64,000 bases of DNA, taken from the NCBI GenBank assembly GCA_041662665.1, contig JBAZSC010000001.1:321511-385510 (forward strand). The letters run 5' to 3'. Origin of the DNA: Patescibacteria group bacterium. GTDB taxonomy: Bacteria > Patescibacteriota > JABMPQ01 > JAQVVF01. This document shows positions 26,412 through 62,323 of this stretch, piece after piece (within the stretch, counting starts at the first letter, position 1; the number at the start of each line of letters is the position of its first letter). The notes beneath the pieces were generated by a model that was not told where the DNA came from, ran no database searches, and was given only the letters and a program-made list of their open reading frames with translations. The position numbers and the translations under genes are program-made.

Positions 26412-26440
26412 TTGACAAAAATAATGTTAAGTGTTATACT
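26412..26440 (+). promoter_or_regulatory. Sigma70-type promoter of the NYN cassette
   Basis: TTGACA (26412-26417), a 17-nt spacer, then TATACT (26435-26440). Confidence 0.6.
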
Positions 26441-26483
26441 CAAAAATACTGTTATCGTGGTCCAGGGAAGGAGGAAAGACAGA

Positions 26484-27383
26484 ATGGAAAAGGACGCACA
26501 ACCTCGTATCGCTCTTTTTATCGACTTTGATAATATGCTTGATTTTCTTACTCCTGATTCAATTTCCAGATTACTAAATAAGCTTCGTGATCTTGGTAGA
26601 ATAGAGCATGCAGGAATTTATACTGATGTTTGTTTTGTTGCGAACTCCGGTAAAACAAAAGACTATGGAATCATTCTTCGTGCCTATGAACAGGGTTGTA
26701 AAATCTTTCATTGCCCAAAGCTAAATGGTCGAGAAAAGCCGAAAGATACAGTGGATGAGAATATTATCACTGATATCCATACGTTGCTTGAAACTCGACC
26801 TGACATTAGTCACTTTGTTCTCGCTTCCCATGATTCAAATTTTCTTAGGTCTGCAAATGCAGTTAGTTTTCGAGGTAAAAATCTTGTTGTTGTCATGAAT
26901 GATCCAGCAGGTAATAGGAGACTAGAACAAATTGCGGATGATGTCATTTTTCTAAGTGAGCTAGAAACGCCAGAAAATAAGGAACCAGCCCCTCCGAATA
27001 ATCCCTTGGCTGAATTCTTAAACCAAAGATTTGCAGATCCAGAAAGCCTATACAAAGCTGTGAGAGAACTTGGCCTCAACAAAAACGATAGGTTAAGACT
27101 TGCCCTAGATGCTGTAATTAATATTAATAGTATGCCTCAAGGAGAATATCCTTACAAATACCTTGTAGATTACCTAGCTCATCAGGGTCAATTCACTTTT
27201 GCTCAGCGAACAGATGAAGGCGCAATTAGAGGTGCGATAAATGATTTGATCGGTTGTAACATTTTACTCAGACAAACAAAACCTGATTTCAAATTCTATG
27301 TTCTAGATCCAACTCATATGTTTGTAATCGTCGCACTCAATTCTGTACATCTTGAAGTCCTCAAAGCTCTTTTGCAAGATTAG
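26484..27383 (+). CDS. NYN-domain (LabA-like) putative RNase; SD-led cassette gene
   Basis: Start reassigned to MEKDAQPRIALFIDFDNM, preceded by gggaaGGAGGaaagacaga. The IALFIDFDN and VLASHDSNF motifs are typical of NYN/LabA. The stop codon lies inside the hairpin agattag..ctaatct plus T-run. Confidence 0.7.
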   Translation: MEKDAQPRIALFIDFDNMLDFLTPDSISRLLNKLRDLGRIEHAGIYTDVCFVANSGKTKDYGIILRAYEQGCKIFHCPKLNGREKPKDTVDENIITDIHTLLETRPDISHFVLASHDSNFLRSANAVSFRGKNLVVVMNDPAGNRRLEQIADDVIFLSELETPENKEPAPPNNPLAEFLNQRFADPESLYKAVRELGLNKNDRLRLALDAVININSMPQGEYPYKYLVDYLAHQGQFTFAQRTDEGAIRGAINDLIGCNILLRQTKPDFKFYVLDPTHMFVIVALNSVHLEVLKALLQD

Positions 27384-27401
27384 ATCTACTCTAATCTTTT
27401 T

Positions 27402-28274
27402 TTATACCCAAATTATCATCACTCTCTCACATCCTCCTAAATCATTTTTGATTTCATATTTTGCTTCTGGCATTTTTTCTTTAACCAGATTTATCATTTT
27501 GTCTTTAAAAACTGGATCAATCTCAAAAAATATAATGCCATTTTTATTCAGATATCTTGGCGCTTGATCTAGTAATTCAGAATACAAAGTTGTTTCTTCT
27601 TTTACAATCAAAGCGGTTTTTGGTTCAAATTTTCTGACATCTTCTTCAGTTAAATCTAATTGTTCAACTGTAATATATGGTAAATTAGCGCAAATTATGT
27701 CAACTTTATTTTCAAGTAATGGTTCTAATAAATTTCCTTGCAATAACTCAACATTTGCTTTATTTTTTTCAACATTTATTTTTGCAACTTCTAGAGCATC
27801 ATAAGATAAATCAATTGCAAAAATTTTAGCATTTTCCAAATTTTTAGCCAGGCTTACAGCAATACATCCAGATCCAGTTCCGACGTCAGCAATTTTTAAT
27901 TCAAGTCTCGAAGACGCTCGGCTTTCTCCGGAAAAAGCCGAGCGTCTTAGTTTTTGTTCACGAATTACTTCTTCAACGAGTATTTCAGTTTCAGGTCTTG
28001 GAATTAAAACTCGTTTATCAACGTAAAAATTTAGTCCGAAAAATTCTTTATTATTAATAATATAGGCAATTGGCTCATGTTTCTTTCTTCTTTCTAAAAG
28101 CTGATTAAATTGTTCAATTTGTTTTTCGTTTAATTCAATTTCAGAATTCGCAAATAAATATTCTTTATTTTTTTTCAAAACAAAAGATAACAAAATTTCG
28201 CAATCCAAATCTGGAGAAGAAGAAATGCCTTTTAATTCTTTTATCGATTTATTTAATAAATTTTTTATAGACAT
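27402..28274 (-). CDS. prmC: Release factor glutamine N5-methyltransferase
   Basis: IADVGTGSGCIA SAM motif and the ICANLPY (NPPY-like) motif. It lies downstream of prfA. Confidence 0.85.
   Translation of the reverse strand: MSIKNLLNKSIKELKGISSSPDLDCEILLSFVLKKNKEYLFANSEIELNEKQIEQFNQLLERRKKHEPIAYIINNKEFFGLNFYVDKRVLIPRPETEILVEEVIREQKLRRSAFSGESRASSRLELKIADVGTGSGCIAVSLAKNLENAKIFAIDLSYDALEVAKINVEKNKANVELLQGNLLEPLLENKVDIICANLPYITVEQLDLTEEDVRKFEPKTALIVKEETTLYSELLDQAPRYLNKNGIIFFEIDPVFKDKMINLVKEKMPEAKYEIKNDLGGCERVMIIWV
27911..27948. repeat. 38-bp GC-rich near-perfect palindrome inside the prmC coding sequence
   Basis: aagacgctcggctttctccggaaaaagccgagcgtctt. It encodes ...SAFSGESRASSRL... just upstream of the SAM-binding motif. 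Confidence 0.8.
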
Positions 28275-28310
28275 TTTATTATTATGTTATTTTTAATTTT
28301 ATTATTCGCA

Positions 28311-29524: not shown

Positions 29525-29553
29525 TTGACATTTACATAGCTGTATGCTATAAT
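29525..29553 (+). promoter_or_regulatory. Consensus sigma70-type promoter of the Cys-rich lipoprotein cassette
   Basis: TTGACA (29525-29530), a 17-nt spacer, then TATAAT (29548-29553). Confidence 0.65.
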
Positions 29554-29593
29554 TAAAAAAGTTCAATCCAGCTGCAGCAGAGGAGGAAAGAAG

Positions 29594-29968
29594 ATGAGAA
29601 GAACACTAATAGCAGTGATTTTCTTCAATCTCATTGGATTTGGTTTTGGTTGTACTCTCAAACCACAGCAATGCCCGTCACAAGGTCTTAAGATTGATGA
29701 AGGACAAGAAAAAAAAAGCTTGCTCATTGTTGAAGAAGCAAAAACTAGCGATTGTTGTGATCCCATTACCCATGGATTGATGAGTACGATTCACGGACGA
29801 GAAACCTATTTCTTTGATAGTTGTCATGGAGACAAGCCATTATATCCTCTTTGCAAGTTTTCTGCAAAGCGCGAATGTTGCGACCGTGCAACAGGACGAT
29901 GGGTTGGTTCTGACGGTTATCTTTCGACGCTTGTAACATGTAGTGGAACAGTTTTTTGTACTTTGTAA
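29594..29968 (+). CDS. Small Cys-rich secreted/lipoprotein; SD-led cassette gene
   Basis: SD agaGGAGGaaagaag precedes the ATG. The signal peptide MRRTLIAVIFFNLIGFGFGC has a lipobox-like Cys, and there are about 10 further Cys residues. The terminator gggccaatgtggctc plus T-run follows. Confidence 0.65.
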   Translation: MRRTLIAVIFFNLIGFGFGCTLKPQQCPSQGLKIDEGQEKKSLLIVEEAKTSDCCDPITHGLMSTIHGRETYFFDSCHGDKPLYPLCKFSAKRECCDRATGRWVGSDGYLSTLVTCSGTVFCTL

Positions 29969-30012
29969 GGGCCAATGTGGCTCTTTTTTTCTATAAAAAT
30001 TGGTGCAATTCG

Positions 30013-31490: not shown

Positions 31491-31600
31491 GAGCTTAAAA
31501 ATATAAAAACCTAAAAATATAAAAATTTAGATTTATAAAACAATTATACACAAAACACAGAAAAATGCAAGAGTAAATAAAAAAACCGCTTCAAAGCGAT

Positions 31601-31819
31601 TTAAAATCCGAAAGATCTTGATTTCTTTTTATCAAGGTACAATCGTACTTGTTCAGGGGTAACAAGAGAAACTTTCACAGCCATATCTGCGACACATGCA
31701 CCACAAAATATTTTATTGCCCAAGTTTTTTAATTGTACGCCACATTCAAAATGAAAACCGTTTCCACAAATTGAACATGTCATTGCCGAGTTACTGCCAC
31801 AAACTTTGCACAATGCCAT
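31601..31819 (-). CDS. Stand-alone zinc-ribbon protein; SD-led cassette gene, paralogous to the N-terminus of the adjacent Prs
   Basis: Start reassigned to MALCKVCGS, preceded by GGAGGaaaggg. The pattern CxxC..CSIC..GNKIFCGAC..VTPEQ aligns with the Prs N-terminal domain. Confidence 0.6.
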   Translation of the reverse strand: MALCKVCGSNSAMTCSICGNGFHFECGVQLKNLGNKIFCGACVADMAVKVSLVTPEQVRLYLDKKKSRSFGF

Positions 31820-31917
31820 CCCTTTCCTCCTTTTCCTCTGCCAAAAGAACATTTATATTATACAAAAAATGCAAAGAATCGCAAGAGTAAATAAAAAAAC
31901 TGCCAAAAAGCAGTTAT

Positions 31918-33039
31918 CTAGTCAAAAAGTGCAGAAACAGAACCATACTCATAAATAGCCTTAATCGCATCAGCAATTAATTTATCAACAGACACAACTC
32001 TTATTTTTTCATGTAACTTTCTTTCTGGAATATGAACAGTATCAGTAACAGCTAGAAAATCTAGACAAGATAGTTGAATTCGTTCTGCTGCTCCTTCTGT
32101 CAATTCACCATGGATCCCACCTCCAACAACTTTTATTGCTCCATTTTTTAAGCAAGCTTGACCCATTTTAATCATTGTTCCAGCTGATTTCACAATATCA
32201 TCAATAATCAAAACAACTTTACCAGATACATTTCCAATAATCGTTATCTGATCAACTCTATCATCTGTAGTATCTCGACCTTCCTTGTGAGCAACGGCAA
32301 AGCCAACTCCGAATTTCCTAGCATAAGCGCCAACTACTTTGGCATAGCCTGCATCAGTCAAAAAAACAGTTCGATTAGAATCGATCAAATCAGCAAAAGC
32401 TTCTTTCAAAAGCAATGGTGTTGCCCAAAGATGATCAACCGGCTTGTTCGTAAAGCCTTGAATCGCACCAGCATGCAGATCCACAAAAACAAATCTATCG
32501 GCACCAGCTGTTTCAAACAAATCAATCATTAATCTTGCTGAAATAGCAATTCTTGGTTGAGTTTTTCTCTCTTGCCGTTGATAAGCAAAATCAGGAATCA
32601 CTACGCAAACTTCTTGAGCTGAAGCTTGTTTTGCGGCCCTTATCATTATTAGCAATTCTTCTCTAACCTTTGCACCAAGTTCATCTTCGCTAGCAACGGT
32701 TGGCTGAATAATAAAGACTCTTCTTCCTCTTAAGTTCTCAAGAAACTGAGGTCTCATTTCACTGCCTTCAAAATCAGTAAATCTCATTTTTCCAAGTTCA
32801 ACGCCCAGCTTATTACAAACTCTTTGTGCCAAAAGCTCATTAGATCTGCCAGAAAAGATTGCTAATTGATGAGGAGTAACAGATCTATAGAGAGTTTTGC
32901 CACAATCGCGACAAATAAATTTTTTTCCAATTTTTGTCAGGCATTGCGAACAAAAACATTGATCGCAGAACATACAAATTCCTTCTGCCGAATTTTCTTG
33001 ATGCAAGATGCAATGAACTCCAAAACTTTTTTCTGTCAT
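31918..33039 (-). CDS. prs: Ribose-phosphate pyrophosphokinase fused to an N-terminal zinc-ribbon domain; SD-led
   Basis: Start reassigned to MTEKSFG, preceded by aAGGAGGagaga. The Prs blocks are RVFIIQP, IPDFAYQRQERK and VVLIIDDIVKSAGT. The N-terminus is CMFCDQCFCSQCL..GKKFICRDCG. Confidence 0.8.
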   Translation of the reverse strand: MTEKSFGVHCILHQENSAEGICMFCDQCFCSQCLTKIGKKFICRDCGKTLYRSVTPHQLAIFSGRSNELLAQRVCNKLGVELGKMRFTDFEGSEMRPQFLENLRGRRVFIIQPTVASEDELGAKVREELLIMIRAAKQASAQEVCVVIPDFAYQRQERKTQPRIAISARLMIDLFETAGADRFVFVDLHAGAIQGFTNKPVDHLWATPLLLKEAFADLIDSNRTVFLTDAGYAKVVGAYARKFGVGFAVAHKEGRDTTDDRVDQITIIGNVSGKVVLIIDDIVKSAGTMIKMGQACLKNGAIKVVGGGIHGELTEGAAERIQLSCLDFLAVTDTVHIPERKLHEKIRVVSVDKLIADAIKAIYEYGSVSALFD

Positions 33040-33196
33040 TCTCTCCTCCTTGGCAAGGATTTCTCCTTGCATTAAACGGAATGAACTTCATTTCATAATC
33101 TACCTATTTTGTAACAATCAAAAAAGAAACAACCTAGAATTTATTGTCCGCCGTAGTCCCGCAGGACGAAGGCGGATTGAATTTTAAGGAACAAAA

Positions 33197-34843: not shown

Positions 34844-34856
34844 AGGTAATTAATTT

Positions 34857-34943
34857 AACTTATCTAATTAGTCTAACTAATCTAACTTATCTAATTAGTC
34901 TAACTAATCTAACTTATCTAATTAGTCTAACTAATCTAACTCG
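34857..34943. repeat. 27-bp tandem repeat, about 3.2 copies, each containing the palindrome ctaattag
   Basis: The unit aacttatctaattagtctaactaatct starts at 34857, 34884 and 34911. It lies in the divergent gap between the Elp3-like and methyltransferase genes. Confidence 0.85.
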
Positions 34944-35673: not shown

Positions 35674-35702
35674 TTGACATTATTAGTATTTTTGTATAAA
35701 AT
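35674..35702 (+). promoter_or_regulatory. Sigma70-type promoter of a secreted-protein cassette
   Basis: TTGACA (35674-35679), a 17-nt spacer, then TAAAAT (35697-35702). Confidence 0.6.
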
Positions 35703-35736
35703 AATTAGTCTTAATTCAGTCAAGGAGGAGGAAGAG

Positions 35737-36198
35737 ATGAGAAGAGCAGTTCTGATTGTTCTCTCTGCAATTATATTCAGTTCCAATGCCTTTGCACAAA
35801 AACAACTCACTGTTCCAAAAGAAATTGTTGTAGAAATGGAAAAAACTGGTTGTCAAGTTATCCCATCTTACGTTAGTACTCAGAGCAATTACATCAACTT
35901 TGACATTGATAACCAAAATATCCCAAAATGTGTTGTCATTCCGATCGCAGCCAATTTCTCAACGCTTACTTTCCTTGTCCAAGCGCCATACAATTATGAT
36001 GTTACGGCTGAATTTTCTGATGGCAATCTGCAATTTTACAGGCATCAGAAAGAACGAAGTAAGCTTCAAATCAATCTCTGGAATTGCTTCAATCTTGGTC
36101 GTAATAGTTGGCTATTCGTCAAAGTTTCTATCTATAATCAAGATCCCAAAGCTCAACCAAACCAGAAAATTTATTTCGGAGCTCGTGCCAGGCAATAG
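35737..36198 (+). CDS. Small secreted protein; SD-led cassette gene
   Basis: Start reassigned to MRRAVLIVLSAIIFSSNAFAQ (signal peptide), preceded by cAAGGAGGAGGaagag. The terminator agatcggtttaccgatct plus T-run follows. Confidence 0.6.
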   Translation: MRRAVLIVLSAIIFSSNAFAQKQLTVPKEIVVEMEKTGCQVIPSYVSTQSNYINFDIDNQNIPKCVVIPIAANFSTLTFLVQAPYNYDVTAEFSDGNLQFYRHQKERSKLQINLWNCFNLGRNSWLFVKVSIYNQDPKAQPNQKIYFGARARQ

Positions 36199-36335
36199 CT
36201 CATTTCAGATCGGTTTACCGATCTTTTTTATTTCTCTTGCCAAAATTTTTTTCTCATGTTATATTGCTAACAGTAAACCATTAACACTTCACAGTTAACT
36301 GTTAAATGTTAAAAGTTAATTGTTAATACACCACA

Positions 36336-38829: not shown

Positions 38830-38860
38830 AAAAAAAAGACCGACTCGGACGAGTCAGTCT
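38830..38860 (-). terminator. Intrinsic terminator of high-GC cassette C
   Basis: The minus strand reads agactgactcgtccgagtcggtct followed by T8. Confidence 0.7.
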
Positions 38861-38905
38861 AGGTAGGGTGCGAAAGGAACGGGTGTTGTGAGTGTGTGGG
38901 TAGGT

Positions 38906-39493
38906 CTATCGGGTGGGGGGGCTCAGCGTGTAGGTGTAGCGACCGGGGGCGAAGCTGATGTGCAGCTCTTCCTGGGTCACCATGCCGTCGCGGGGGACTG
39001 GCACGTTCACGGTGTCGAGCCTGTACAGCTCTTCACCCTTCTCGTTGACGTTGGCCCAGACGTTGCAGTAGGGTGTGGTCTGGTTGAAGAGGTTGACGAC
39101 ACGATCGGGCAGCTTGAGATCTTTTCCTGTCTGAGTGAGCACCAGCTGCAGGAACCTCTTCCTGCCACGCTTATCCTCACGCCAGAACCAGAAGGCATCC
39201 GTCACCTTGTAGCCAGCCATGCCGAGCTCGCTCAGGAGTGCGCTCATGTCGACCATCTGCCGATTGGCAGCGATGTTCGTGCCGGTGTCATCCATGCCGT
39301 CTCTCTTGACACCGAACTCGATTCCGAGATCCTTTGCCTCCTTGCGGTGCTTCGCAGCCACCGCCTTTGCATCGTACTCCTTCTGAGGGAGCAGAGCCTC
39401 GATCCAGCCGCCGATTCCGGCGACCTTCACGAGGATGATGAGGGGCATGAGCCCCAGACCTTCGAACTGATCAACCAGGACCGTGCGGCTCAT
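38906..39493 (-). CDS. High-GC (about 60%) SD-led ORF of unknown function, 195 aa (module C)
   Basis: Start reassigned to MSRTVLVDQFEG, preceded by acaGGAGGtttccg. Codons mostly end in G or C. There is one hydrophobic segment (LGLMPLIILVKVAGIGGWIEALL). I recognise no family. The plus-strand ORF 38888..39583 is its antisense shadow. Confidence 0.65.
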   Translation of the reverse strand: MSRTVLVDQFEGLGLMPLIILVKVAGIGGWIEALLPQKEYDAKAVAAKHRKEAKDLGIEFGVKRDGMDDTGTNIAANRQMVDMSALLSELGMAGYKVTDAFWFWREDKRGRKRFLQLVLTQTGKDLKLPDRVVNLFNQTTPYCNVWANVNEKGEELYRLDTVNVPVPRDGMVTQEELHISFAPGRYTYTLSPPTR

Positions 39494-39542
39494 CGGAAAC
39501 CTCCTGTCAGTGGTGGCACTCACCCCGATTCCAGGGCTTTTC

Positions 39543-39571
39543 ATCATATCACAGCACCCTATTTTTGTCAA
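39543..39571 (-). promoter_or_regulatory. Sigma70-type promoter of module C
   Basis: On the minus strand, TTGACA (39571-39566), a 17-nt spacer, then TATGAT (39548-39543). Confidence 0.6.
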
Positions 39572-39672: not shown

Positions 39673-39730
39673 CGTGCGATTTGTAAGCATAAAAAAAGAG
39701 GTAAAAACCTCTATCTAAAAGAACGCTTAA

Positions 39731-40708
39731 TTATGCTTTGAGTGCAACCTTCGCTAGTGCAATCGCTCCTTCTCTTGATTTCGCTACTACAATATGCCCA
39801 TCTTTATGGCAGTTATCAGCATCAGCAACTCCAGTCAATTTGACCAAAGTTGAGCCGCGCTGTCCATGCCATGCTTTTGGCAAGTTTTTACGATAGCGTT
39901 TGCCAGTCCCATATCCAGCATTCACAACATGTACCATCCAGCCATTGTTAACGCGATGAACAACAAATTTGATCAGCGGTAATTCTTTAACAACTGATGA
40001 CCAAGGCATCGGATCATTCAATACAACAATTCTTGGATCATCAGATTCAGGTACCGCTTTCAACACCAGCTCTTCAGCTCTGATGACGCCTGCAGCTCTT
40101 GCAATTGTCCTTTTTAGATAGACCTTGGCAAATTCCAAAGCTTCAAAAAAAGCAACATCTGGATCTCGATCATTTTCATCCCAAGCTGGATTATAATTAT
40201 CAATCACATTTGAAATAGTGTGTGCAGAGATATCTTCCACTTTTCCTTGAAAAATCTTGTAGCCATTGTCCTGTGCATCAATTGGAATCACCAGCCACTT
40301 TTCTACAAGCTTAGCTACTTTTTCATTTCCATCACAAATTGCTACTCCAAACTTTTTCCAGACCAATCCAAAAGAAGCATAGGGCAGATGTGCGGTCACT
40401 TTCTTGCCAAACAATTTCCACATCAGCAAGTTGATAATATGCTTGAAAATCCAAGCAAACCGCAAGACTTTGAAAAAGCCTTCACGTATTCCAGCTCCGC
40501 CAAACATGTGATGATCAAAGTCGCCAGTATTTGGATCATTTTCGCCGCCGACATCAACTCGAAAATCAGCCTTTTCGTAAACTTCCTGATCGCGAGTCCG
40601 AAAAATTTGAATGATAAAGAGCAATGCCAATGCTGCACACGCAAACACATCATCAGCATGAAACCTTCCATTATGCGTTGCAACAACCTTATGTTCCTTC
40701 TCAATCAT
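39731..40708 (-). CDS. MYG1/UPF0160 family metal-dependent hydrolase; SD-led cassette gene
   Basis: The N-terminus VATHNGRFHADDVFACAAL is the MYG1 signature. The SD is GAGGAGGaagaggaa. The terminator agaggtttttacctct plus T-run follows. Confidence 0.8.
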   Translation of the reverse strand: MIEKEHKVVATHNGRFHADDVFACAALALLFIIQIFRTRDQEVYEKADFRVDVGGENDPNTGDFDHHMFGGAGIREGFFKVLRFAWIFKHIINLLMWKLFGKKVTAHLPYASFGLVWKKFGVAICDGNEKVAKLVEKWLVIPIDAQDNGYKIFQGKVEDISAHTISNVIDNYNPAWDENDRDPDVAFFEALEFAKVYLKRTIARAAGVIRAEELVLKAVPESDDPRIVVLNDPMPWSSVVKELPLIKFVVHRVNNGWMVHVVNAGYGTGKRYRKNLPKAWHGQRGSTLVKLTGVADADNCHKDGHIVVAKSREGAIALAKVALKA

Positions 40709-40742
40709 TTCCTCTTCCTCCTCTTCGTTTTCGCAGCTAATT

Positions 40743-40771
40743 AAAATATCAGAAAATAACTAAAATGTCAA
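40743..40771 (-). promoter_or_regulatory. Sigma70-type promoter of the MYG1 cassette
   Basis: On the minus strand, TTGACA (40771-40766), a 17-nt spacer, then TATTTT (40748-40743). Confidence 0.55.
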
Positions 40772-47984: not shown

Positions 47985-48245
47985 GCAAAATAAAACCGGG
48001 CAAAAGCTCGGTTAAGGGAACAAAGGGCAAAAAATCGATTCATCCAATTGGCGTTCATTTTATTGTCTTCTCCGTCAGGAGTTGGGGGAGTCGCTTGGCA
48101 CTTATAACTGTTAACTTTCAACTGTTAACTAGTTTTCAGTCGCCCATGACGTCCTCCTCTACCAATGGGGTAGAGGTTAGCATCGCCATAGTTTCAGGCG
48201 CGCCTTCCTCGACCCAGGGAACCAAAGATCAAGATGATTTATAAC
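47985..48245 (-). ncRNA. Candidate noncoding transcript with a GC-rich 5' domain
   Basis: It is bounded by a consensus promoter (48251-48278, minus strand) and a hairpin plus T-run (minus strand aaccgagcttttgcccggttttatttt, near 47990-48015). The GC-rich segment at 48135-48225 contains the hairpin cctctacc/ggtagagg and the palindrome aggcgcgcct. Confidence 0.3.
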
Positions 48246-48250
48246 AATGT

Positions 48251-48278
48251 ATTATAGCAAGCCTGTAGTATTTGTCAA
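48251..48278 (-). promoter_or_regulatory. Consensus sigma70-type promoter (minus strand)
   Basis: On the minus strand, TTGACA (48278-48273), a 16-nt spacer, then TATAAT (48256-48251). Confidence 0.6.
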
Positions 48279-48481: not shown

Positions 48482-48510
48482 TTGACATGATAAAAATAGA
48501 GTAATATAAT
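48482..48510 (+). promoter_or_regulatory. Perfect consensus sigma70 promoter (plus strand)
   Basis: TTGACA (48482-48487), a 17-nt spacer, then TATAAT (48505-48510). Confidence 0.65.
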
Positions 48511-48574
48511 GCAGAGTTCTAAGCTCAAACCAAGCTCATTCCAAAATGTCAATCAGAGCAAACTAGTTTAACAG

Positions 48575-48654
48575 TCTAACCAGTTTAGGTTAACCAGTCT
48601 AACTAGTCTAACCAGTTTAGGTTAACCAGTCTAACTAGTCTAACCAGTTTAACC
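48575..48654. repeat. 32-bp tandem repeat, about 2.5 copies
   Basis: The unit tctaaccagtttaggttaaccagtctaactag starts at 48575 and 48607, with a partial copy at 48639. There are no unique spacers. Confidence 0.85.
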
Positions 48655-48663
48655 GCATTTCCG

Positions 48664-48751
48664 TCTATTTATTAGAGGAGGTGAAATGGTCTCCAGGGAA
48701 TAAATCTTTTCTTTAGTCCTTGCTGAGCCACTTCGGCCTCTAATAAATGGG
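48664..48751 (+). ncRNA. Hairpin-closed structured element containing an SD-led 5-codon mini-ORF
   Basis: A 15-bp closing stem: tctatttattagagg (48664-48678) pairs with cctctaataaatggg (48737-48751). Inside is aGGAGGtgaaATGgtctccagggaaTAA (MVSRE), with an inner stem caggga/tccttg and a cttcgg loop. Confidence 0.35.
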
Positions 48752-48974
48752 CAGAATGAAATTTCCAATTACCAATTTCCAATTCACAATAAATTTTCAA
48801 TAAGCAATTTTCAATGACGACAGTGACGATTTGAAAATTAGTAATTGGTCATTTATTGTAAATTGATAATTGGAAATTAGAGATATGTAATCAGTAACTA
48901 GTAATCAAAAAATTGATTCCTAAATACTGATTGCGTGCGAGAGGGGACCAAGAGTCCTCGAGGAGGAAAGGACA

Positions 48975-49196
48975 ATGGCGAATTGCATCATCTGCCACCA
49001 GCGCGTTGCGAGCGGCGGTGACCGGCATGCCAAGGGGCAGTGTCCGGCGAAGAAGAAGGAGCGCGAGCAGAAGGAGAACGAGGTGCAGGCCGGCGATCTC
49101 GCGACCCCGGGTCGCGGAGACGTCGTGCCGCTGGCCGGCAAGACCAGCACCCAGCTCTCCAACAAGGGCAAGTCCCGGGGGTCCAAGTCGGGCTGA
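48975..49196 (+). CDS. High-GC SD-led small basic protein, 73 aa (module A)
   Basis: The SD cGAGGAGGaaaggaca precedes the ATG. Of the overlapping ORFs here, this is the frame I picked because its codons mostly end in G or C. The protein is MANCIICHQRV...GQCPAKKKEREQKE... I recognise no family. Confidence 0.55.
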   Translation: MANCIICHQRVASGGDRHAKGQCPAKKKEREQKENEVQAGDLATPGRGDVVPLAGKTSTQLSNKGKSRGSKSG

Positions 49197-49392
49197 GCCT
49201 GACACGACCCACAAGACGAGCCCAAGTACTAGGTTCTAGTGTCGTTCCGTTTCATCCCCAAGTTCCCCAGATTTTTCTTCAGTTTTCCGCCAGTACCTTC
49301 CATGCCAGACTCTTGTCTGGCCCCACCTGAAATAATAATGATTACATTGTTATTTGAGGCGGTACATTAAAAAATGATCAATTTACAATTTT

Positions 49393-49547
49393 TCACCCTT
49401 CGGGTGACCACCCGCAGGGTGGCAATAAATTACCAATTACCAATTTTCAAAGCGACGATGGTCGTAATTGGAAATTGTTCATTGAAAATTTATTGGAAAT
49501 TGCAAAATTGGTAATTGCCACCCTACGGGTGGTCACCCGAAGGGTGA
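49393..49547. repeat. About 155-nt composite inverted repeat with GC-rich self-complementary ends
   Basis: tcacccttcgggtgaccacccgcagggtggcaa ... ttgccaccctacgggtggtcacccgaagggtga. The AT-rich ccaatt/aattgg words sit in the middle. Confidence 0.8.
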
Positions 49548-49639
49548 GAAATTAGGGTTTGCGGTAAAGCAAAGATCTTAAAAAAGATTTTCGCCTTGCT
49601 GCAAAGTGCAGCCTATAGCAGAGAAGGAAAAGTAAACGA

Positions 49640-49816
49640 TGAACGATCAGATGGACGCGGCGGACCGGCGGATCATGGACGAAACGACTGTTCGGCTCGA
49701 AGGCCGGCAGGTCAAGTCCAGCCAGGGAGCTGGTTCCAGGTCGGCAGAAGTGCCAATCTGGAAGATCCGCGCGAGCCGTCGTGCTCTCCCCGCCATGGCA
49801 GTCTACGGCGACTAGA
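49640..49816 (+). CDS. Possible high-GC small ORF, 58 aa (module B)
   Basis: Below the ORF-track length cut-off. ATG at 49640 with only a weak SD (agaaGGAaaagtaaacg). The protein is MNDQMDAADRRIMDETTVRLEGRQVKSS..., and the frame has mostly G/C-ending codons. Confidence 0.35.
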
Positions 49817-50106: not shown

Positions 50107-50148
50107 ACATCTCGTCCTTTCACCAACTGAAGCACACAAGGAGGAAAA

Positions 50149-50814
50149 ATGCCAAGTAAAGACAAGCCAAGACATGTTTTTGTTAATTGCTTGTTTCATG
50201 AAAACGAAAGGCTTACAGTCACCAACAAGGATGGTGAATTAAAAGCCTGGGGATTTGATGGCGATGTAATAAGTATCATCTCGGAATCCATGTTGCTTAG
50301 CATATCGGGTTCCAATCTGCAACTTGATAAAAGAAAAAAAGCATTGTGTAGATATTTAAAGCTTTTCTTCAACGAAGGAAAACAACCTCCAGCAATTTGT
50401 TTTGAGCATGCAAGGAAGTTGGAATCTGTGTTGTTGCAAATGCGACGATTTCTTCCTAAGGAAAAAGCTAATGTCCAGATTTCTATGATTCCATATCAAG
50501 AAAGTCTGGATAAATGGGCAATCTGGGTAGCCGAAGTAAAAAGAAATAGAGATATTGAAGCTACGAGATTGTGGCGTGAGATTATTTCTAAGCATTTTCC
50601 AGATGATGAAAGTATTGCAGACGAGCAAGACGCAAAAGTGCTTGCTGATCGTCTGTCTTCTGAATGTGTTAGAGAATTATTTGATAAGATACGCAATACT
50701 GCACTTTACCGCAAATCAGAAAAATCTGAATTGCTGAAACAGATCGGATTGTACTTAGCAGAAAAAGCGTATGAAGAAGCAAAAATAAAACATGAAATAG
50801 ATTCTTGGAAGTAG
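50149..50814 (+). CDS. Hypothetical protein, 221 aa; SD-led cassette gene
   Basis: The SD cAAGGAGGaaaa precedes the ATG. GC content is intermediate. I recognise no family. Confidence 0.6.
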   Translation: MPSKDKPRHVFVNCLFHENERLTVTNKDGELKAWGFDGDVISIISESMLLSISGSNLQLDKRKKALCRYLKLFFNEGKQPPAICFEHARKLESVLLQMRRFLPKEKANVQISMIPYQESLDKWAIWVAEVKRNRDIEATRLWREIISKHFPDDESIADEQDAKVLADRLSSECVRELFDKIRNTALYRKSEKSELLKQIGLYLAEKAYEEAKIKHEIDSWK

Positions 50815-50987: not shown

Positions 50988-51247
50988 CTGTCCCGTACTA
51001 TGTTTCTGGTGAATATAAAAAAACATTGATTACTTTAGGAATTTAATCAATGCAACAAACAATATTTATTAGATACTTAGTATGGGATTAATGCTAGAAC
51101 ACTGACAACTTGGAAGGTAAAAATAATAGTCAAAAGTGTTAACTGTTAAGTGTTAATGGTTAACTGTTTGAAGTTGGCACATCGCGGCCAGGCAAGGCCG
51201 CGTTCGCGCGCGAGTAGATTCCGCTTGTGTCAGAGGAGGAGAGCGAC

Positions 51248-53515
51248 ATGTCGACCAACTGCGAGCCGAAGAGCGTCAGCACCGTCAACACCGTCACCGA
51301 GGAGAAGGAGGTGAAGCCCGCCCGGGTGCGCAAGCCCCGGGTGAAGGTCGAGAAGGAAGAGCAGGAGCAGTTCAACGAGGATGGCACGAAGAAGGATGTG
51401 AAGGACGAGGCCCCGCCCAAGAAGCGGAGCCACCACAAGAAGGTCGAGAAGTCCGTCGCCGTCGAGACCGAGACCGCCGAGCCCGCCCCGCCCGCCGAGT
51501 CCACCCCCAAGGTGGCGTCGGTGGCGGTGGTCGAGCAGCCGGTCCAGGTCGCCCCGCCCGCCGCGCCCCAGCCCGAGCCCCCCAAGAAGGGCGAGGTCGA
51601 GGACGTCAACGAGGACGAGGACAAGGACGGCGAGAGCGAGGGTGAGGACGAGGAGCAGGAGACCAGCGAGGAGGCGCTGGAGGACGCCCAGATCAACGAC
51701 CTGGAGTTCCAGAAGAAGATGAGCGAGCTCCCCCGGCACGAGCAGATCCGGCGGCAGAAGGCCCGCAACCGGGTCATCACGAGCAACCGGCGCAGCCGCA
51801 AGACGGCGGCGCAGGACAAGAACCGCGCGGAGCACAACGAGATGCGCGAGGCCGGGCGGCCGGAGGTGAAGATCACCATCCCGGACCCCCTGATCTGCAG
51901 CGCCCACGCCGGTGAAGTCCTGAAGCTCGAGGACGCCTACTCGCTGAACAGCAGCGTGGTCTACGAGCTGACCCAGGTGAGCCAGGAAGGCAAGACCGAG
52001 GCGCAGACCAAGATCCTGAAGTTCGTGGTGAGCAAGCTCGCTCCGCTGTTCCGGTTCAACTGCGAGACCATCCCGGCCTACTGCAAGACGGTGGTGGACG
52101 TGCTGGCGAAGAACATCGCGGCCGTCCAGCCCCTCATCGCGCACGAGAAGAAGGCGCGGTGGGAGAGCCGGATCGTCATGCCCTACGCGGCCGCGCTCCG
52201 GCACTTCGCCGAGAGCAAGGCCGCGGTCGAGGGCAAGCAGCAGAACGTCAAGGACCGGCAGAACAAGGAGGCGTGGGCCTGGTTCGACGAGAACATCGGC
52301 AAGTTTCACGCCGAGCTGGTCGGGCTGCGCAGCGTCGAGGAGATCGTCGGCAAGATCGACATCCTGAACGGCCTGAACGACAAGTGTCTCGACACCTTGC
52401 GCCACCACTTCCTCGAGACCCTGCCCGTGATGCGCTACAGCGAGCCCGGCAAGATGCTGGGTCAGCTGCTGCGCGAGCGGGGCAAGAAGTACGAGCAGGT
52501 GCAGATCGAGGAGCAGCGGGCCCGCAAGGCCGAGGCCGACGAGAAGCGCAGGAAGGAGGAAGAGAAGGCTCTGGCCGGGCTGGGCGAGCTCGAAGGGCTG
52601 TTCGGTGGCGAGGAGAAGCAGGGCGAGGAGCAGGACGAGGAGCCCAGCGAGCGTGACGAGAACGAGAAGCGGATCGGCAAGTGGCTGGAGAAGCTTGTCG
52701 GCGGGAAGATGCACAGCGCGGCCGGGCTGATGACGCCCAGCGCCCTGCGCGAGATCTTCGCCGCGGATCCGGGCGCCGAGGTCTACTCGGCCTGCCCGTT
52801 CAGCCAGCAGGCGCCGGGGACCCAGTACTCCACCTACGTGAACCGGAAGGGCGACAACGAGCCCCTCTTCGCGACGGTGACGGTCCCGACCCTCGTGGTC
52901 GAGACCGACGACGAGGGTCAACCGATCTGCGACGGCAAGGGGCGGCCCAAGCCGTGGATCAACCCCCGTACGAGCAAGACGCAGTACGAGGGGCAGATCG
53001 CGGTGCTGACGAAGCACGAGGCCCGCTGGGCCGCGTCGATCCGCATCCGCCAGATGGCCGAGGAGCAGGTGAACAACGGCCGGTACGACTCGCTGGAGGA
53101 GGCCATCAACGGCATCCATCAGGAAGTCAACCAGGCCAAGACCAACCTCTGGGCGGCCAAGAAGGAGTTCAACGAGGCCAAGGTCTCCGGCGACCAGAGC
53201 CGCATCGACGCGGCCGAGGAGCGCCTGAACCAGGCCAAGGAGGTCATGAACCATCTGAGCGACGACCGTCGTCCGTGGTACCAGGGGATGCTCGAGGGAA
53301 GCCTCGGTGTCCTCAAGTACTACGATCTCAAGAACACGGTCGAGATGCTCAACAAGCCCCGTGAAGAGCGGCCCGCCAAGCGCAACACGCGCGGCGGCGG
53401 GACCCACGGCAACTACGAGCAGGAGCAGTCCCAGGGCGCGAGCGCGGAAGAGCAGGAGGCCTTCTTCCGCAGCCAGAACAACCAGAGCTTCGCCAACAAG
53501 GCCCGCCAGGTCTGA
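51248..53515 (+). CDS. High-GC, GC3-saturated SD-led ORF of unknown function, 755 aa (module D)
   Basis: ATG at 51248 preceded by caGAGGAGGAGagcgac (the track start at 51227 is GTG). By my manual read, about 30-odd of ~755 codons end in A or T. The protein is K/E/Q/N-rich with an acidic/basic low-complexity N-terminal ~200 aa. I recognise no domain. Confidence 0.75.
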   Translation: MSTNCEPKSVSTVNTVTEEKEVKPARVRKPRVKVEKEEQEQFNEDGTKKDVKDEAPPKKRSHHKKVEKSVAVETETAEPAPPAESTPKVASVAVVEQPVQVAPPAAPQPEPPKKGEVEDVNEDEDKDGESEGEDEEQETSEEALEDAQINDLEFQKKMSELPRHEQIRRQKARNRVITSNRRSRKTAAQDKNRAEHNEMREAGRPEVKITIPDPLICSAHAGEVLKLEDAYSLNSSVVYELTQVSQEGKTEAQTKILKFVVSKLAPLFRFNCETIPAYCKTVVDVLAKNIAAVQPLIAHEKKARWESRIVMPYAAALRHFAESKAAVEGKQQNVKDRQNKEAWAWFDENIGKFHAELVGLRSVEEIVGKIDILNGLNDKCLDTLRHHFLETLPVMRYSEPGKMLGQLLRERGKKYEQVQIEEQRARKAEADEKRRKEEEKALAGLGELEGLFGGEEKQGEEQDEEPSERDENEKRIGKWLEKLVGGKMHSAAGLMTPSALREIFAADPGAEVYSACPFSQQAPGTQYSTYVNRKGDNEPLFATVTVPTLVVETDDEGQPICDGKGRPKPWINPRTSKTQYEGQIAVLTKHEARWAASIRIRQMAEEQVNNGRYDSLEEAINGIHQEVNQAKTNLWAAKKEFNEAKVSGDQSRIDAAEERLNQAKEVMNHLSDDRRPWYQGMLEGSLGVLKYYDLKNTVEMLNKPREERPAKRNTRGGGTHGNYEQEQSQGASAEEQEAFFRSQNNQSFANKARQV

Positions 53516-53621
53516 ACCTTCCAACAACCCGCCCCCGGGACAAGTCCAAGCTTTAAGCTTGTAACCTTGCTCCCTGGCGCGCGGCACACTACCATTCCAG
53601 TTCTTTCATTCCCGTTCCTTC

Positions 53622-53650
53622 AGAAGACCCTTACCGGTCTTCTTTTTTTT
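53622..53650 (+). terminator. Intrinsic terminator of module D
   Basis: agaagaccc tta ccggtcttct followed by T8. Confidence 0.7.
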
Positions 53651-56783: not shown

Positions 56784-56954
56784 TTTTTTTACGAGAATTA
56801 TGAATAATGAATCAGGAATCATGACTTGAATAATGAGTAATGAATTTAGAATTCGATATTCTTAATTCATGCTTCAAATCATGATTCATAATTCGTTATT
56901 CATAATTCTTTTTTGATTGACTTTATTTTAATCTCAGAATAAACTATACCAGTT

Positions 56955-58226: not shown

Positions 58227-58286
58227 CGTAATAAAAAGGTCGAACCTTACACAAATTCCCCCGTAGAAAAAAAGGAGGGACGAGCA

Positions 58287-58592
58287 ATGGAGGGAATCAA
58301 TAACAGATATGTATTGATGGCTCTAATTGCCGATCCATACAATTCATCATATGGCAAAGCATTGAAGTCAGGTTTAGAAATTGAATTTCAGCTTTGGGAC
58401 GGTCGAATTATTTCAGTTAGCAATTTCAAAGAAGAGGGAAAAATTCCTGATTTTCGCACTTCAAACTATTGGTTTCCTGACCACATTGTTGTGCCATTGA
58501 TGGACAAGCTCATTATCGAAAATCGTTCCTTTGTTCTGAGTGCTGGACGCGGCGATTTGCGTTGTACTATTATTTGGCAGGTCAAGAGTTGA
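58287..58592 (+). CDS. Small hypothetical protein, paralog a; SD-led
   Basis: The SD aAAGGAGGgacgagca precedes the ATG. It shares LQLWDGRII and C..T(I/V)IW(Q/E)(V/F)K with the next ORF. Confidence 0.6.
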   Translation: MEGINNRYVLMALIADPYNSSYGKALKSGLEIEFQLWDGRIISVSNFKEEGKIPDFRTSNYWFPDHIVVPLMDKLIIENRSFVLSAGRGDLRCTIIWQVKS

Positions 58593-58622
58593 GCAAGTTT
58601 TCCACATACAAAGGAGTGAGAA

Positions 58623-58931
58623 ATGCTGATAAAAATGAAAGACAAGAAGGATCTGGCCTCATGGATTGTATTTCATCATGAATATCAAATAGATATAGAT
58701 AAAACTGATGAATTACAGCTTTGGGATGGTAGGATTATAGTAGGCAGACTTTTACCAGAGAATCCAGAAAAAGTTGACCTTTGGATAGAAAGAAACAACG
58801 TGCGTAGCAAGAGAAAGCTATTTAATCAACTTCTCGATCGATTGCTAAGCTCCAGATCTTCTTTTACAATCCAATGTGAAAATATTTTGAAGGTGTGCAG
58901 GTTTACTGTTATTTGGGAATTCAAAAAATAA
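58623..58931 (+). CDS. Small hypothetical protein, paralog b; SD-led
   Basis: The SD cAAAGGAGtgagaa precedes the ATG. The terminator aaggct...agcctt plus T-run follows. Confidence 0.6.
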   Translation: MLIKMKDKKDLASWIVFHHEYQIDIDKTDELQLWDGRIIVGRLLPENPEKVDLWIERNNVRSKRKLFNQLLDRLLSSRSSFTIQCENILKVCRFTVIWEFKK

Positions 58932-59016
58932 TTAAATGTACTTTTGTATCTAAGGCTTGATCATTTTTGATAGCCTTTTTTATTTACGCAAAGTAAAATT
59001 TAAGGTAAAATAACAC

Positions 59017-60702: not shown

Positions 60703-61611
60703 ATGTTATACGATTTAATTATAATTGGTGCCGGACCAGCAGGTTACACATCAGCAATTTACGCAGCTAGATACAAAATCAATACTTTAGTTTTGGCAAA
60801 AGAAATCGGTGGTCTAGCAATGTCTGCTCCGAAAGTAGAGAACTGGCCAGGTGTTTTAGGAAAAACAGGAATTGAATTAATGGCTGATTTTAAAAAACAC
60901 GTTGAGCATTATGGTGTTAAAATTTTAATGGAAGAAATTTCAGATATTAAAAAAGAAAATAATCTTTTCACAATTTTAACAGAAACTCAACATTATCAAG
61001 CAAAGTCAATAATCTTAGCGCTAGGTTCAGAAAGACGAAAATTAAATATTCCTGGCGAAAAAGAATTAACTGGCAAAGGTGTTGCTTATTGCGCCACTTG
61101 TGATGCAATTTTCTGCAAAAATAAAATCATTGCAGTAGTTGGTGGTGGAAATTCAGCTGCTGTTTCAGCATTACTTTTATCTGAATATGTGAGCAAAGTT
61201 TACATGATTTATCGTAAATCAAAATTAAAAGCCGAACCAATATGGGTTGACCAGATTTTAAAAAATAAAAAAATAGAAATTATATATAATGCAAATGTAA
61301 TTGAAGCAAAGGGTGAAAAATTTTTAGAAAAAATTGTTTTAGACAATAAAAAAGAATTACAAGTTGGCGGATTATTTATAGAAATTGGAGCTAAACCTCA
61401 AACAGAATTAGCAAAATGTTTAAATGTTAAATTAGATAAAAATAATTTAATCATTATTGATCAAGCTTGCAAAACAAATGTTGACGGCGTATTTGCAGCT
61501 GGCGATATTACAACTGGCTCAAATGAATTAAAACAAATTGTAACTGCAGCATCCGAAGGTGCAATTTCCGCTACATCAGTTTATGAATACTTAAAGGCGA
61601 GTAACAAGTAA
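60703..61611 (+). CDS. trxB: Thioredoxin-disulfide reductase
   Basis: IIGAGPAGYTSAIYAAR, the redox-active CATCD motif, and GGGNSA. Confidence 0.9.
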   Translation: MLYDLIIIGAGPAGYTSAIYAARYKINTLVLAKEIGGLAMSAPKVENWPGVLGKTGIELMADFKKHVEHYGVKILMEEISDIKKENNLFTILTETQHYQAKSIILALGSERRKLNIPGEKELTGKGVAYCATCDAIFCKNKIIAVVGGGNSAAVSALLLSEYVSKVYMIYRKSKLKAEPIWVDQILKNKKIEIIYNANVIEAKGEKFLEKIVLDNKKELQVGGLFIEIGAKPQTELAKCLNVKLDKNNLIIIDQACKTNVDGVFAAGDITTGSNELKQIVTAASEGAISATSVYEYLKASNK

Positions 61612-61659
61612 CTAGTAACAAGTAACTAGGATGAGATAATACTGTCATTTAGTTTTTTA

Positions 61660-61688
61660 TCGACAAAAATATTATTTTGTAATATATT
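61660..61688 (+). promoter_or_regulatory. Putative promoter of an SD-led cassette
   Basis: TCGACA (61660-61665), a 17-nt spacer, then TATATT (61683-61688). Confidence 0.4.
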
Positions 61689-61730
61689 TATATATCGTAC
61701 TTTTTGATCGAGCCAAAGGAGGAGGAGAAA

Positions 61731-62111
61731 ATGGAAGAACGAATAACACAAAGTCTAGTAAAAACATGTTCTCTCTGTTTAAATAATTTTGCAGATTTGG
61801 TGGAAGTTTCAAAGATAGCCGGCTATGATTTTATGCTTCCAGATGATAAAGAAAAACATGTTATTGGTTTGATTCCAGATTGTGTAACTTATTTAGTTTT
61901 CATTCTCACAGAAGGAAAGTTCGAACTCAAGTCTGCAAATCAGATCTTCTCATCTCGTGGATTAGATTTTGTCGCAAGTGTAATGGAACGATTTGCCGGA
62001 GATTTTCATATCATTTATATCAAAGACAGCAGTTTCATTTACGAATTAAAGATTGAAAAAGGCAAAAGAACAGTTGAAAGAAGAGTCGAATTAGATGAGT
62101 TCCTTCATTAG
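61731..62111 (+). CDS. Hypothetical protein, 126 aa; SD-led cassette gene
   Basis: Start reassigned to MEERITQ, preceded by cAAAGGAGGAGGAGaaa. The terminator agatgattaatttcatct plus T-run follows. Confidence 0.55.
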   Translation: MEERITQSLVKTCSLCLNNFADLVEVSKIAGYDFMLPDDKEKHVIGLIPDCVTYLVFILTEGKFELKSANQIFSSRGLDFVASVMERFAGDFHIIYIKDSSFIYELKIEKGKRTVERRVELDEFLH

Positions 62112-62323
62112 ATGATTAATTTCATCTTTTTTTATTTCTTGTCTCAATCCGTCAAATTTGGTAAAATAACTATATAAAAATTCAATAAACAAATTCCAAA
62201 TCCTAAACAATTTACAAATTACAAAACACAAAATATCTTTGTAATTTGATTAAAAAAATTGTATTCCAATTTTTTTAATTGTGGTTTGTTTGGAATTTGA
62301 GATTTGTAATTTAATTTAACTTT

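Follow-up and report, generated by a model that had tools for sequence, protein, structure and literature searches.

Can a genome that translates most of its genes without a Shine-Dalgarno (SD) sequence hold a second set of genes that carry one, and did such a set arrive recently from elsewhere? This question is raised by a 64,000-nucleotide (nt) stretch of a Patescibacteria group bacterium (contig JBAZSC010000001.1, positions 321,511 to 385,510), which is referred to as the window. About a quarter of its genes lie in units led by a GGAGG-type SD motif, and these units stand between housekeeping genes that have no such motif. A preliminary description of the window took the SD-led units for horizontally acquired or mobile cassettes. 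We confirmed that the distinction between SD-led and SD-less genes is real. We give about an even chance to the reading that the SD-led units are a long-standing, separately controlled second expression class of the clade and not a layer of recent imports.

Two initiation regimes in one window

The window has a GC (guanine plus cytosine) content of 34%. Besides four tRNA genes and the F-type atp operon, of which the a, c, alpha and beta subunits were tested by Pfam, it contains rodA, rplY, prmC, prfA, rpmE, rpsB, truD, tsf, pyrH, cca, trxB and genes for a U32 peptidase and an NTP-transferase, and Pfam upheld these identities as previously named. A GGAGG-type motif was found 4-9 nt before ATG at all of the 14 starts for which a strong SD had been claimed; it is exactly GGAGG at 13 of them and AAGGAG at 58623. 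Computed against the canonical 16S tail CACCUCCUUU, which may not be this clade's own tail, the duplex energies ranged from -9.0 to -12.3 kcal/mol for the 14 SD-led genes and from -3.3 to +2.7 kcal/mol for 44 backbone genes. There is no overlap between the two sets of values (Mann-Whitney p = 2e-8), which bears out the proposal of two initiation regimes. The pattern GGAGGN{4,9}ATG occurred 20 times, compared with 4.29 +/- 2.03 times in shuffled sequences, and no shuffle out of 100 gave as many as 20. A purine motif complementary to CCUCC thus stands 4-10 nt upstream of the start above chance. In the leaders of 37 backbone genes, the frequency of A was 0.59-0.78 at positions -6 to -2, and that of G was 0 at -10, -8, -7, -6 and -5 and 0.14 at -9. 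That is, the backbone has no SD and is enriched in A and depleted of G just before the start, as is the bulk of genes in Bacteroidia.

The preliminary description also held that every SD-led gene is visibly richer in GC than the backbone and that four form a high-GC group. The medians are indeed higher (GC 0.39 vs 0.31; GC at third codon positions (GC3) 0.33 vs 0.21; p ~1e-7), but only three of the 14 are at 60-67% GC (39493 on the minus strand, 48975 and 51248), and the genes at 58623 (0.34) and 61731 (0.33) are barely above the backbone. The junctions of the GC islands were identical across independent assemblies (ENA ERZ27249449, Logan SRR18595301 and SRR6484324, and JGI), indicating that the islands are not assembly artefacts. 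A chimera as their origin was ruled out by these identical junctions in three independent assemblies and is also contradicted by orthologous islands in sister species. The other assemblies were 100% identical to the window except for the copy number of an RNA repeat at 48.6 kb and one difference at 49010, in the p73 gene listed below, and population-level hypervariation was rejected on the basis of this near-complete identity.

The description of the units as self-contained promoter-leader-open reading frame (ORF) modules, with or without a terminator, between housekeeping genes was upheld. The promoters named earlier are present at their places, and 9-10 units close in a GC hairpin plus a T-run, in agreement with the statement that most do. 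An obvious promoter lies within 130 nt in only about half of the units. The products include nucleotide salvage and nuclease enzymes, secreted, Zn-ribbon and CsrA-like proteins, and clade-specific orphans. The units are as follows, with the coding sequence abbreviated as CDS, amino acids as aa and the untranslated region as UTR.

26412-27383 (+): NYN-domain unit; promoter TTGACA-17-TGtTATACT 26412-26440; GGAGG 26470; CDS 26484-27383, 299 aa, GC 0.38
29525-29995 (+): Cys-rich lipoprotein-like unit; perfect promoter 29525-29553; GGAGG 29582; CDS 29594-29968, 124 aa, GC 0.40; terminator 29967-29985 plus T-run
31583-31884 (-): Zn-ribbon unit, 72 aa; promoter TTGCGA-16-TATAAT 31884-31857; GGAGG 31830; CDS 31819-31601; terminator 31602-31583
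31898-33049 (-): Zn-ribbon-Prs (phosphoribosyl pyrophosphate synthetase) unit; GGAGG 33049; CDS 33039-31918, 373 aa, GC 0.38, GC3 0.22; terminator 31915-31898
35674-36224 (+): unit of a secreted 153-aa protein (p153); promoter 35674-35702; GGAGGAGG at 35724; CDS 35737-36198; terminator 36207-36224
38837-39571 (-): p195 high-GC unit; promoter TTGACA-17-TGaTATGAT 39571-39543; GGAGG 39504; CDS 39493-38906, 195 aa, GC 0.60, GC3 0.81; conserved 5' hairpin and C-rich 3' UTR; terminator 38860-38837
39697-40771 (-): MYG1 unit; promoter 40771-40743; GGAGG 40721; CDS 40708-39731, 325 aa, GC 0.42; terminator 39712-39697; direct repeats of ~35 nt (GCACrAATGCCTTAAGGCCAC...) on both sides
40839-42574 (-): TPR unit; perfect promoter 42574-42546; leader of ~180 nt; GGAGG 42364; CDS 42353-40848, 501 aa, GC 0.40; terminator 40862-40839
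48136-48278 (-): divergent unit; perfect TG-extended promoter 48278-48251; GGAGG 48157; 3-codon mini-ORF from 48147
48482-48756 (+): candidate structured-RNA unit upstream of the unit with CDS start 48975; perfect promoter 48482-48510, followed by an RNA of ~248 nt at 48511-48756
48962-49196 (+): p73 high-GC unit; GGAGG 48962; CDS 48975-49196, 73 aa, GC 0.67, GC3 0.88; C-rich 3' UTR
49639-49815 (+): p58 high-GC unit, missed by the preliminary description; weak SD GAAGGA; CDS 49639-49815, 58 aa, GC 0.63; 3' UTR paralogous to that of p73
50140-50814 (+): p221 unit; GGAGG 50140; CDS 50149-50814, 221 aa, GC 0.37
51102-53650 (+): high-GC unit of the gene called 'big'; CTGACA-17-AATAGT 51102-51130 in a conserved upstream block; GGAGG 51235; CDS 51248-53515, 755 aa, GC 0.66, GC3 0.96; conserved C-rich 3' UTR; terminator 53622-53643
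58274-58985 (+): two-gene paralogue unit; GGAGG 58274 with CDS 58287-58592 (101 aa), then AAGGAG with CDS 58623-58931 (102 aa); common hairpin terminator at ~58950-58985
61660-62111 (+): p126 unit; promoter TCGACA-17-TATATT 61660-61688; GGAGGAGG at 61718; CDS 61731-62111, 126 aa, GC 0.33

The divergent unit at 48136-48278 (-) and the one at 48482-48756 (+) had likewise been overlooked in the preliminary description. In the divergent unit, GGAGG is partly paired with an upstream CCUCU, and the unit is possibly a decayed cassette or leader. The 72-aa Zn-ribbon protein (31601-31819, -) and the N-terminal extension of Prs (32900-33039, -) have alike CxxC...CxxC Cys-rich patterns, and they may be paralogous domains.

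Conservation, losses and base composition of the units

Related genomes were retrieved through Tsf, MYG1 and Prs, and they cover the slots of the units incompletely. Two of them, L006 and L007, are sister species whose backbone proteins share 85-92% identity with those of the window (TruD down to 71% in L007), and L036-L039 are more distant (TruD 60% identical in L036). The backbone was SD-poor in all of them. Among these genomes, orthologues in the same slot were found for Prs, p153, p195, MYG1, TPR and 'big'. SD-led prs stands upstream of rpmE in L007, L039 and L038; p153 follows the methyltransferase gene in L007 with its signals conserved; 'big' lies upstream of rpmG in L006 and L007; and the outgroup L036 has the order tsf-TPR-MYG1-p195-truD, TPR being present in L007 as well. 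p195 was found in all five genomes (the orthologues in L006, L007, L036 and L037 have a GC of 0.53-0.62). Alignments of the flanks showed that TTGACA, the TG-extended -10 element, GGAGG and the terminator hairpins are kept amid diverged leaders, in five genomes for p195, four for Prs, three each for MYG1, TPR and 'big', and two for p153. Every orthologue of MYG1, TPR, Prs and p153 keeps GGAGG, as do four of the five p195 genes (GAGGAG in L036), and AGGAGG precedes 'big' in L006 and L007. Retention of the motif between diverged flanks is the mark of purifying selection. These same-slot orthologues of six units with conserved signals, in relatives that include an outgroup with TruD 60% identical, speak against the recent acquisition or mobility that the preliminary description had suggested.

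The patchy presence of the units was borne out, since their presence is far more variable between genomes than that of the backbone. MYG1 was not found in L006 or L007 and is present in the same slot in the outgroup L036. The Cys-rich lipoprotein-like gene was not found in L006, and the 72-aa Zn-ribbon gene was not found in L006, L007 or L039. An orthologue was detected in L007 only for p73 and in L006 only for p58, and the promoter of the divergent unit is conserved in both sister species. Since the outgroups hold TPR, MYG1, p195 and Prs, the absence of these genes from L006 or L007 indicates loss, and the presence/absence differences are losses wherever an outgroup exists. Of the ~35-nt direct repeats that flank MYG1 in the window, a single copy is left in L007.

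The GC class of each gene was constant in every genome compared. GC3 was 0.96, 0.93 and 0.93 for 'big' in three genomes, 0.74-0.88 for p195 in four orthologues and 0.75 for its whole ORF in L006, 0.34-0.37 for MYG1 and 0.33-0.38 for TPR. Between genomes that share ~90% identity in their core proteins, the 'big' proteins share only 33-37%. When four-fold degenerate sites of conserved residues were compared, 49-51% differed in 'big' and 36-53% in the backbone, with ~50% in most comparisons, which indicates that the silent sites are saturated in both classes. The differences in 'big' were C-to-G or G-to-C exchanges in 81-84% of the cases, whereas those in the backbone were mostly exchanges between A and T. 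Because C and G are retained at saturated sites, the high GC3 is a gene-specific equilibrium and does not result from a shortage of time. The earlier suggestion of a series from recent (65% GC) to ameliorated (40% GC) acquisitions is thus contradicted, and a GC3 of ~0.95 is maintained for the gene in question and is not a stage of amelioration. It was also found that p221 (37% GC) is 33% identical to the central domain of the 66%-GC 'big' protein of L007 (L007 16934-17482; E = 6e-24) and is homologous to that of L006, indicating that one protein family exists in both compositional states; no similarity was detectable between p221 and the adjacent 'big' of its own genome.

The codon usage of the high-GC genes differs accordingly from that of the backbone. 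CGG occurs at 26 per 1000 codons vs 0.2 in the backbone and CCC at 29.7 vs 0.5, and the ratio of AAG to AAA is 90:1 vs 220:1217. Among 13,604 backbone codons, CGG (3), CCC (7), AGG (12) and GGG (14) are nearly unused, and they are common in the high-GC genes; the scarcity suggests that the corresponding tRNAs are missing or scarce. The high-GC subset implies selection at the nucleotide or mRNA level, or a local GC-biased process. No known process explains ~95% G/C at silent sites, and such an equilibrium does not follow from current models of mutation bias or amelioration. Its maintenance in orphan genes of a genome with a GC3 of 0.2 is the most surprising and unexplained part of our results.

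The foreign origin and the mobility of the units were not supported by searches for donors or for mobility machinery. MYG1 had no near donor, its source-named matches outside the clade being mostly other Patescibacteria at ~40% identity, and Prs matched clade members and then generic bacterial Prs at 42%. An exhaustive HMMER search with 'big' gave three matches, clade members only, among 1.84 billion representative proteins, and a word-index search returned only 'big' itself. No relatives of p195 and p221, the two proteins scanned, were found in viral contigs, and an alignment of p195 had no match in metagenome contigs; the p195 structure predicted without an alignment had a pLDDT (predicted local distance difference test) of 41, too low for use. 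PHROGs gave nothing meaningful (a single weak match of 'big', E 1e-4), and PADLOC detected no defence system. No integrase was present among the scanned ORFs of the window, and no att site was found. A phage or moron origin was rejected on the empty viral scans of p195 and p221 and the lack of a meaningful match in PHROGs and PADLOC.

A gene for an IS200/IS605-like Y1 transposase is located at 47197-47805 (GC 0.22), next to the densest cluster of units. On either side of it lies a copy of a 97-nt direct repeat (47098-47194 and 47812-47908; 97% identity between the copies), and the stretch 47098-47908 has no counterpart at that place in L006 and L007. Elsewhere in the window, three tandem paralogues of 913, 1003 and 964 aa (2652-11605, -) are SD-less and AT-rich and have faint DUF4214/PKD matches.

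Promoters, leaders and the reading of the GGAGG tract

All promoter matches of at least 11 of 12 positions in the window lie upstream of GGAGG units, with the exception of one intragenic match. Backbone genes and tRNA genes also have sigma-70-like matches with an extended -10 element (the protein genes were judged by eye). A distinct promoter regime for the SD-led units was ruled out on this ground; what distinguishes their promoters is an added consensus -35 element, and one polymerase could serve both classes of genes. The leaders of the units are unlike those found with an ordinary SD. Purines make up 84% of the spacer that follows GGAGG, and G makes up 30%, compared with 57% and 8% in AT-rich relatives that use SD (p ~1e-6), and the motif is really a G/A-rich polypurine tract of the form GGAGGA(A/G)GAG. 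The predicted folding energy of the region from -30 to +30 had a median of -9.6 kcal/mol for SD-led genes vs -3.9 kcal/mol for the backbone (p = 2e-4), and the first 30 nt of the CDS had a GC of 0.40 vs 0.27.

The tract could be read by either of two candidate routes: it may pair with the 16S tail, in canonical or altered form, or it may be recognised by a protein. The spacing of 4-9 nt between GGAGG and ATG fits a working SD. No rRNA genes are present in the window, and no 16S was found in the retrieved relatives except L008, a distant and also SD-poor genome (Tsf 49% identical), so that its 16S is the only related one in hand. The L008 16S is complete (12366-14790) and has an intron near its 3' end that encodes a LAGLIDADG-type protein. 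The L008 unit of tdk (thymidine kinase) has a TTGACA promoter, AAAAAGGAGGG, a raised GC and a hairpin terminator. A canonical 16S end (...GAUCACCUCCUU) in the genome of the window would support SD pairing, and a tail such as CUCUUCCUCC would account for the extension GGAGGAAGAG. If the 16S of the clade has no anti-SD, as in L008, the conserved GGAGG would be read by something besides rRNA.

CsrA proteins bind GGA motifs that overlap ribosome-binding sites. Two tandem CsrA-family genes are located ~1.3-2.1 kb past the right end of the window (L040 4163-4492 and 4571-4918, -). They encode proteins of 109 and 115 aa in which an insertion of ~35 residues splits the domain, with Pfam scores of 53-56 bits against a cut-off of 27, and each gene is equipped with its own promoter (TTGACA), a leader with GGAGG and a terminator hairpin. 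A gene for an 88-aa membrane protein is built alike (L040 5028-5294, -) and lies past the CsrA-like pair, followed by rplJ-rplL. The number of GGA motifs between -25 and -1 was 2.1 on average in SD-led genes, compared with 1.7 in relatives that use SD (p = 0.025), and the motifs are stacked.

The RNA at 48482-48756 (+) has counterparts in L006 (15788-16049) and L007 (15444-15646), and its length varies over ~205-264 nt. Across the three species, identity is ~97% in the ~45 nt at its 5' end and in the ~100 nt at its 3' end, and these parts enclose a repeat array that varies. The 3' ~100 nt fold into a long hairpin (predicted energy -40 to -48 kcal/mol), in which GAGGAGGUGA matches the canonical tail perfectly and is partly paired to CCUCUAA. 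The length of a mini-ORF inside the RNA is not conserved, and no Rfam family was matched. The RNA is a candidate for a new structured RNA or a regulatory leader. Complementarity between 5' and 3' UTRs and terminal inverted repeats around the units were not above shuffled sequences, barring the MYG1 direct repeat and a 9-mer of 'big'. In the latter, 9 nt upstream of the gene (TTGGAAGGT, 51110-51118) are exactly complementary to the 9 nt right after the stop codon (ACCTTCCAA, 53516-53524); the pair is kept in the window, L006 and L007 and is borderline against shuffles (p ~0.06).

Short AT-rich repeat units, often confined to a single spacer, make up the backbone spacers (for example, 23295-23405, 34847-34941, 44902-45036, 48759-48878, 49387-49553 and 56794-56909). 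The units include TAACTAATC... with a 9-nt period, ACAAATTCCAAAC and TGTTAACTG, and they are laid out as long imperfect palindromes that resemble bidirectional AT-rich terminators. Several indels between the sister genomes end in such palindromes.

Explanations weighed and comparison with known systems

In the reading that we favour, the bulk of genes would be translated without SD from A-rich, G-free leaders, as in Bacteroidia, and a minority of mostly accessory genes would form insulated single-gene transcription units, each with a near-consensus sigma-70 promoter, a 35-180-nt leader, a polypurine GGAGG tract and usually a GC hairpin terminator. Selection would hold these signals and the base composition of each gene across species, and the differences between genomes would arise mainly from deletion between repeated intergenic sequences. 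The GGAGG tract would provide an initiation route apart from that of bulk mRNAs, through pairing with a normally little-used 16S tail, through binding of a CsrA-like protein, or both, which could allow the class to be regulated apart from housekeeping translation. An extreme subset at a gene-specific C/G equilibrium would be formed by the three or four genes whose GC3 is 0.8-0.96. Several points weigh against this reading. It is drawn from the 64-kb window and ~60 kb from relatives, not from a whole genome. No orthologue was found in the retrieved relatives, whose slots are partly covered, for the genes at 29594, 31819, 50149, 58287, 58623 and 61731, and a recent gain of some of these six is possible. 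The 3' exon of the L008 16S ends in GUAGGGGAACCUGUGCGUAGAUCAUUUAAUAAA (...GAUCAUUUAAUAAA) and has no CCUCC, so that by analogy SD-antiSD pairing may not operate in the clade. The GGAs, stacked 3 nt apart, depart from the classic CsrA layout of hairpin loops 10-60 nt apart. A CsrA-like gene is SD-led and yet AT-rich (GC 0.29), that is, SD and GC are separable, and a symbiont with a small genome would hardly be expected to sustain selection strong enough to hold ~750 silent sites.

The origin proposed in the preliminary description, in which horizontally acquired or mobile cassettes keep the signals of SD-using donors, with high-GC genes recent and those at ~40% GC ameliorated, now seems improbable. 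The atypical composition and autonomy of the units, their patchy presence among close relatives, the six that have no orthologue there, the IS200-like transposase adjoining the densest cluster and the palindromic repeats bordering several indels are all expected of such cassettes. For six units, however, this origin is largely refuted by syntenic outgroup orthologues with conserved signals. In addition, the GC class is unchanged, with C/G remaining at saturated silent sites, no donor-like homologues were found for MYG1, Prs and 'big', no viral, PHROG or defence-system match, integrase or att site was found, and the palindromes are general to all intergenic spacers. The SD-led genes that are high in GC and poor in U might be expressed in another cell, a GC-rich, SD-using bacterium that would be the host of this presumed epibiont. 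This would agree with their canonical bacterial signals, with their use of codons nearly unused by the backbone (CGG, CCC and AAG over AAA) and with fast-evolving clade-specific orphans, as in an arms race. We regard it as extremely improbable: neither transfer machinery nor a host is in evidence, Prs and MYG1, ordinary enzymes needed in the cell itself, are driven by the same signals, and we know of no precedent. The wider notion of an orthogonal class, read where or when bulk AU-rich mRNAs are not, either because its mRNAs survive when an AU-specific RNase or a change in ribosome state shuts down housekeeping translation or because they are expressed in a GC-rich, SD-using host, is very improbable as well.

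The remaining alternatives concern the tract itself. GGAGG may not be read by the ribosome at all, being the operator of an RNA-binding (CsrA-like) protein in a clade that has no CCUCC, or it may pair with an altered tail such as CUCUUCCUCC. We hold this to be unlikely. L008, whose 16S has no anti-SD, has a unit of the same kind; a subgroup of Parcubacteria was reported to have no CCTCCT (PMC9297842); the GGAGGA(A/G)GAG extension is unexplained by the canonical tail; and neighbouring CsrA-family genes with the same leader would be expected under autoregulation. Conversely, the spacing to ATG is that of working SDs, L008 is distant, GAGGAGGUGA in one element matches the canonical tail perfectly, and binding of CsrA to the leaders is putative. 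It is also conceivable, and in our estimate unlikely, that the genes need an SD for structural reasons: their GC-richer 5' ends would fold more stably, as the folding energies and the GC of the first 30 nt suggest, and would call for an SD and a non-pairing polypurine leader without any separate regulation. This does not fit the SD-led genes at a backbone-like GC (the CsrA-like gene at 0.29, 61731 and 58623), and it leaves unexplained the origin and maintenance of the raised GC as well as the co-occurring consensus promoters and terminators. The long-standing second class that we favour can be compared with several known systems.

The units resemble integron cassettes in that single-gene modules at 48.7-51 kb are parted by imperfect palindromes and vary in content between strains. 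They differ in that they have promoters of their own, that no integrase or attI was found and that the palindromes are generic intergenic repeats. Phage morons, reportedly described by Juhala et al. in 2000 and by Hendrix, are said to be autonomous promoter-gene-terminator units of deviant GC between conserved genes. The anatomy, the deviant composition and the placement in gaps of conserved gene order are shared, whereas the flanks here are chromosomal (prfA, rpmE, rpsB, truD, tsf and rpmG) and not a prophage, and the units are old and syntenic. The amelioration of foreign genes, a model attributed to Lawrence and Ochman, likewise deals with genes of atypical composition in a compositionally uniform genome. 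Here, saturated sites stay C/G without a drift to the genome value, no donor match was obtained, and instead of an absence at the same position in relatives, six units are syntenic. These units therefore provide a counter-example to the shortcut by which atypical GC together with a different ribosome-binding site is read as recent horizontal transfer. The CsrA/Rsm systems share with them GGA-rich leaders that overlap the ribosome-binding site, and CsrA-family genes have the same leader; the differences are the ~35-residue insertion in the proteins, GGAs 3 nt apart instead of in separated hairpin loops, and no established sponge RNA.

Some lineages of Parcubacteria are reported to have a 16S without the anti-SD motif (PMC9297842). 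They are SD-poor Patescibacteria like the organism of the window, and the 16S of its relative L008 ends in GAUCAUUUAAUAAA. A retained and conserved GGAGG-led class is not mentioned there as far as a text search shows, and one would not expect to see it where the anti-SD has been lost.

The closest likeness in translation is to Bacteroidia, in which the anti-SD is sequestered in the ribosome; in Flavobacterium johnsoniae, the bulk of genes has no SD and rpsU keeps a strong one, which is used for autoregulation and is read by a subset of ribosomes (PMC7797042, PMC9976891, PMC13000453). The SD-less bulk with upstream A and no G and the minority with a strong SD are common to both. No rpsU was found among the SD-led genes of the window, which encode NYN, Prs, MYG1 and TPR proteins and orphans, and in this respect the bS21/bS18/bS6-rpsU arrangement of Bacteroidia is not reproduced. 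SD-independent translation with a rare SD-led exception has so far been established only for Bacteroidia, with a single autoregulated gene. In contrast to the one gene of F. johnsoniae, the SD-led class makes up about a quarter of the window's genes; they are accessory, and each unit has its own promoter, usually a terminator and mostly a shifted composition, in another phylum. An ultra-small lineage of Patescibacteria thus has a large, individually promoted GGAGG-led class, conserved across species, beside an SD-free core, and this class could show how expression is partitioned in cells with almost no classical regulators.

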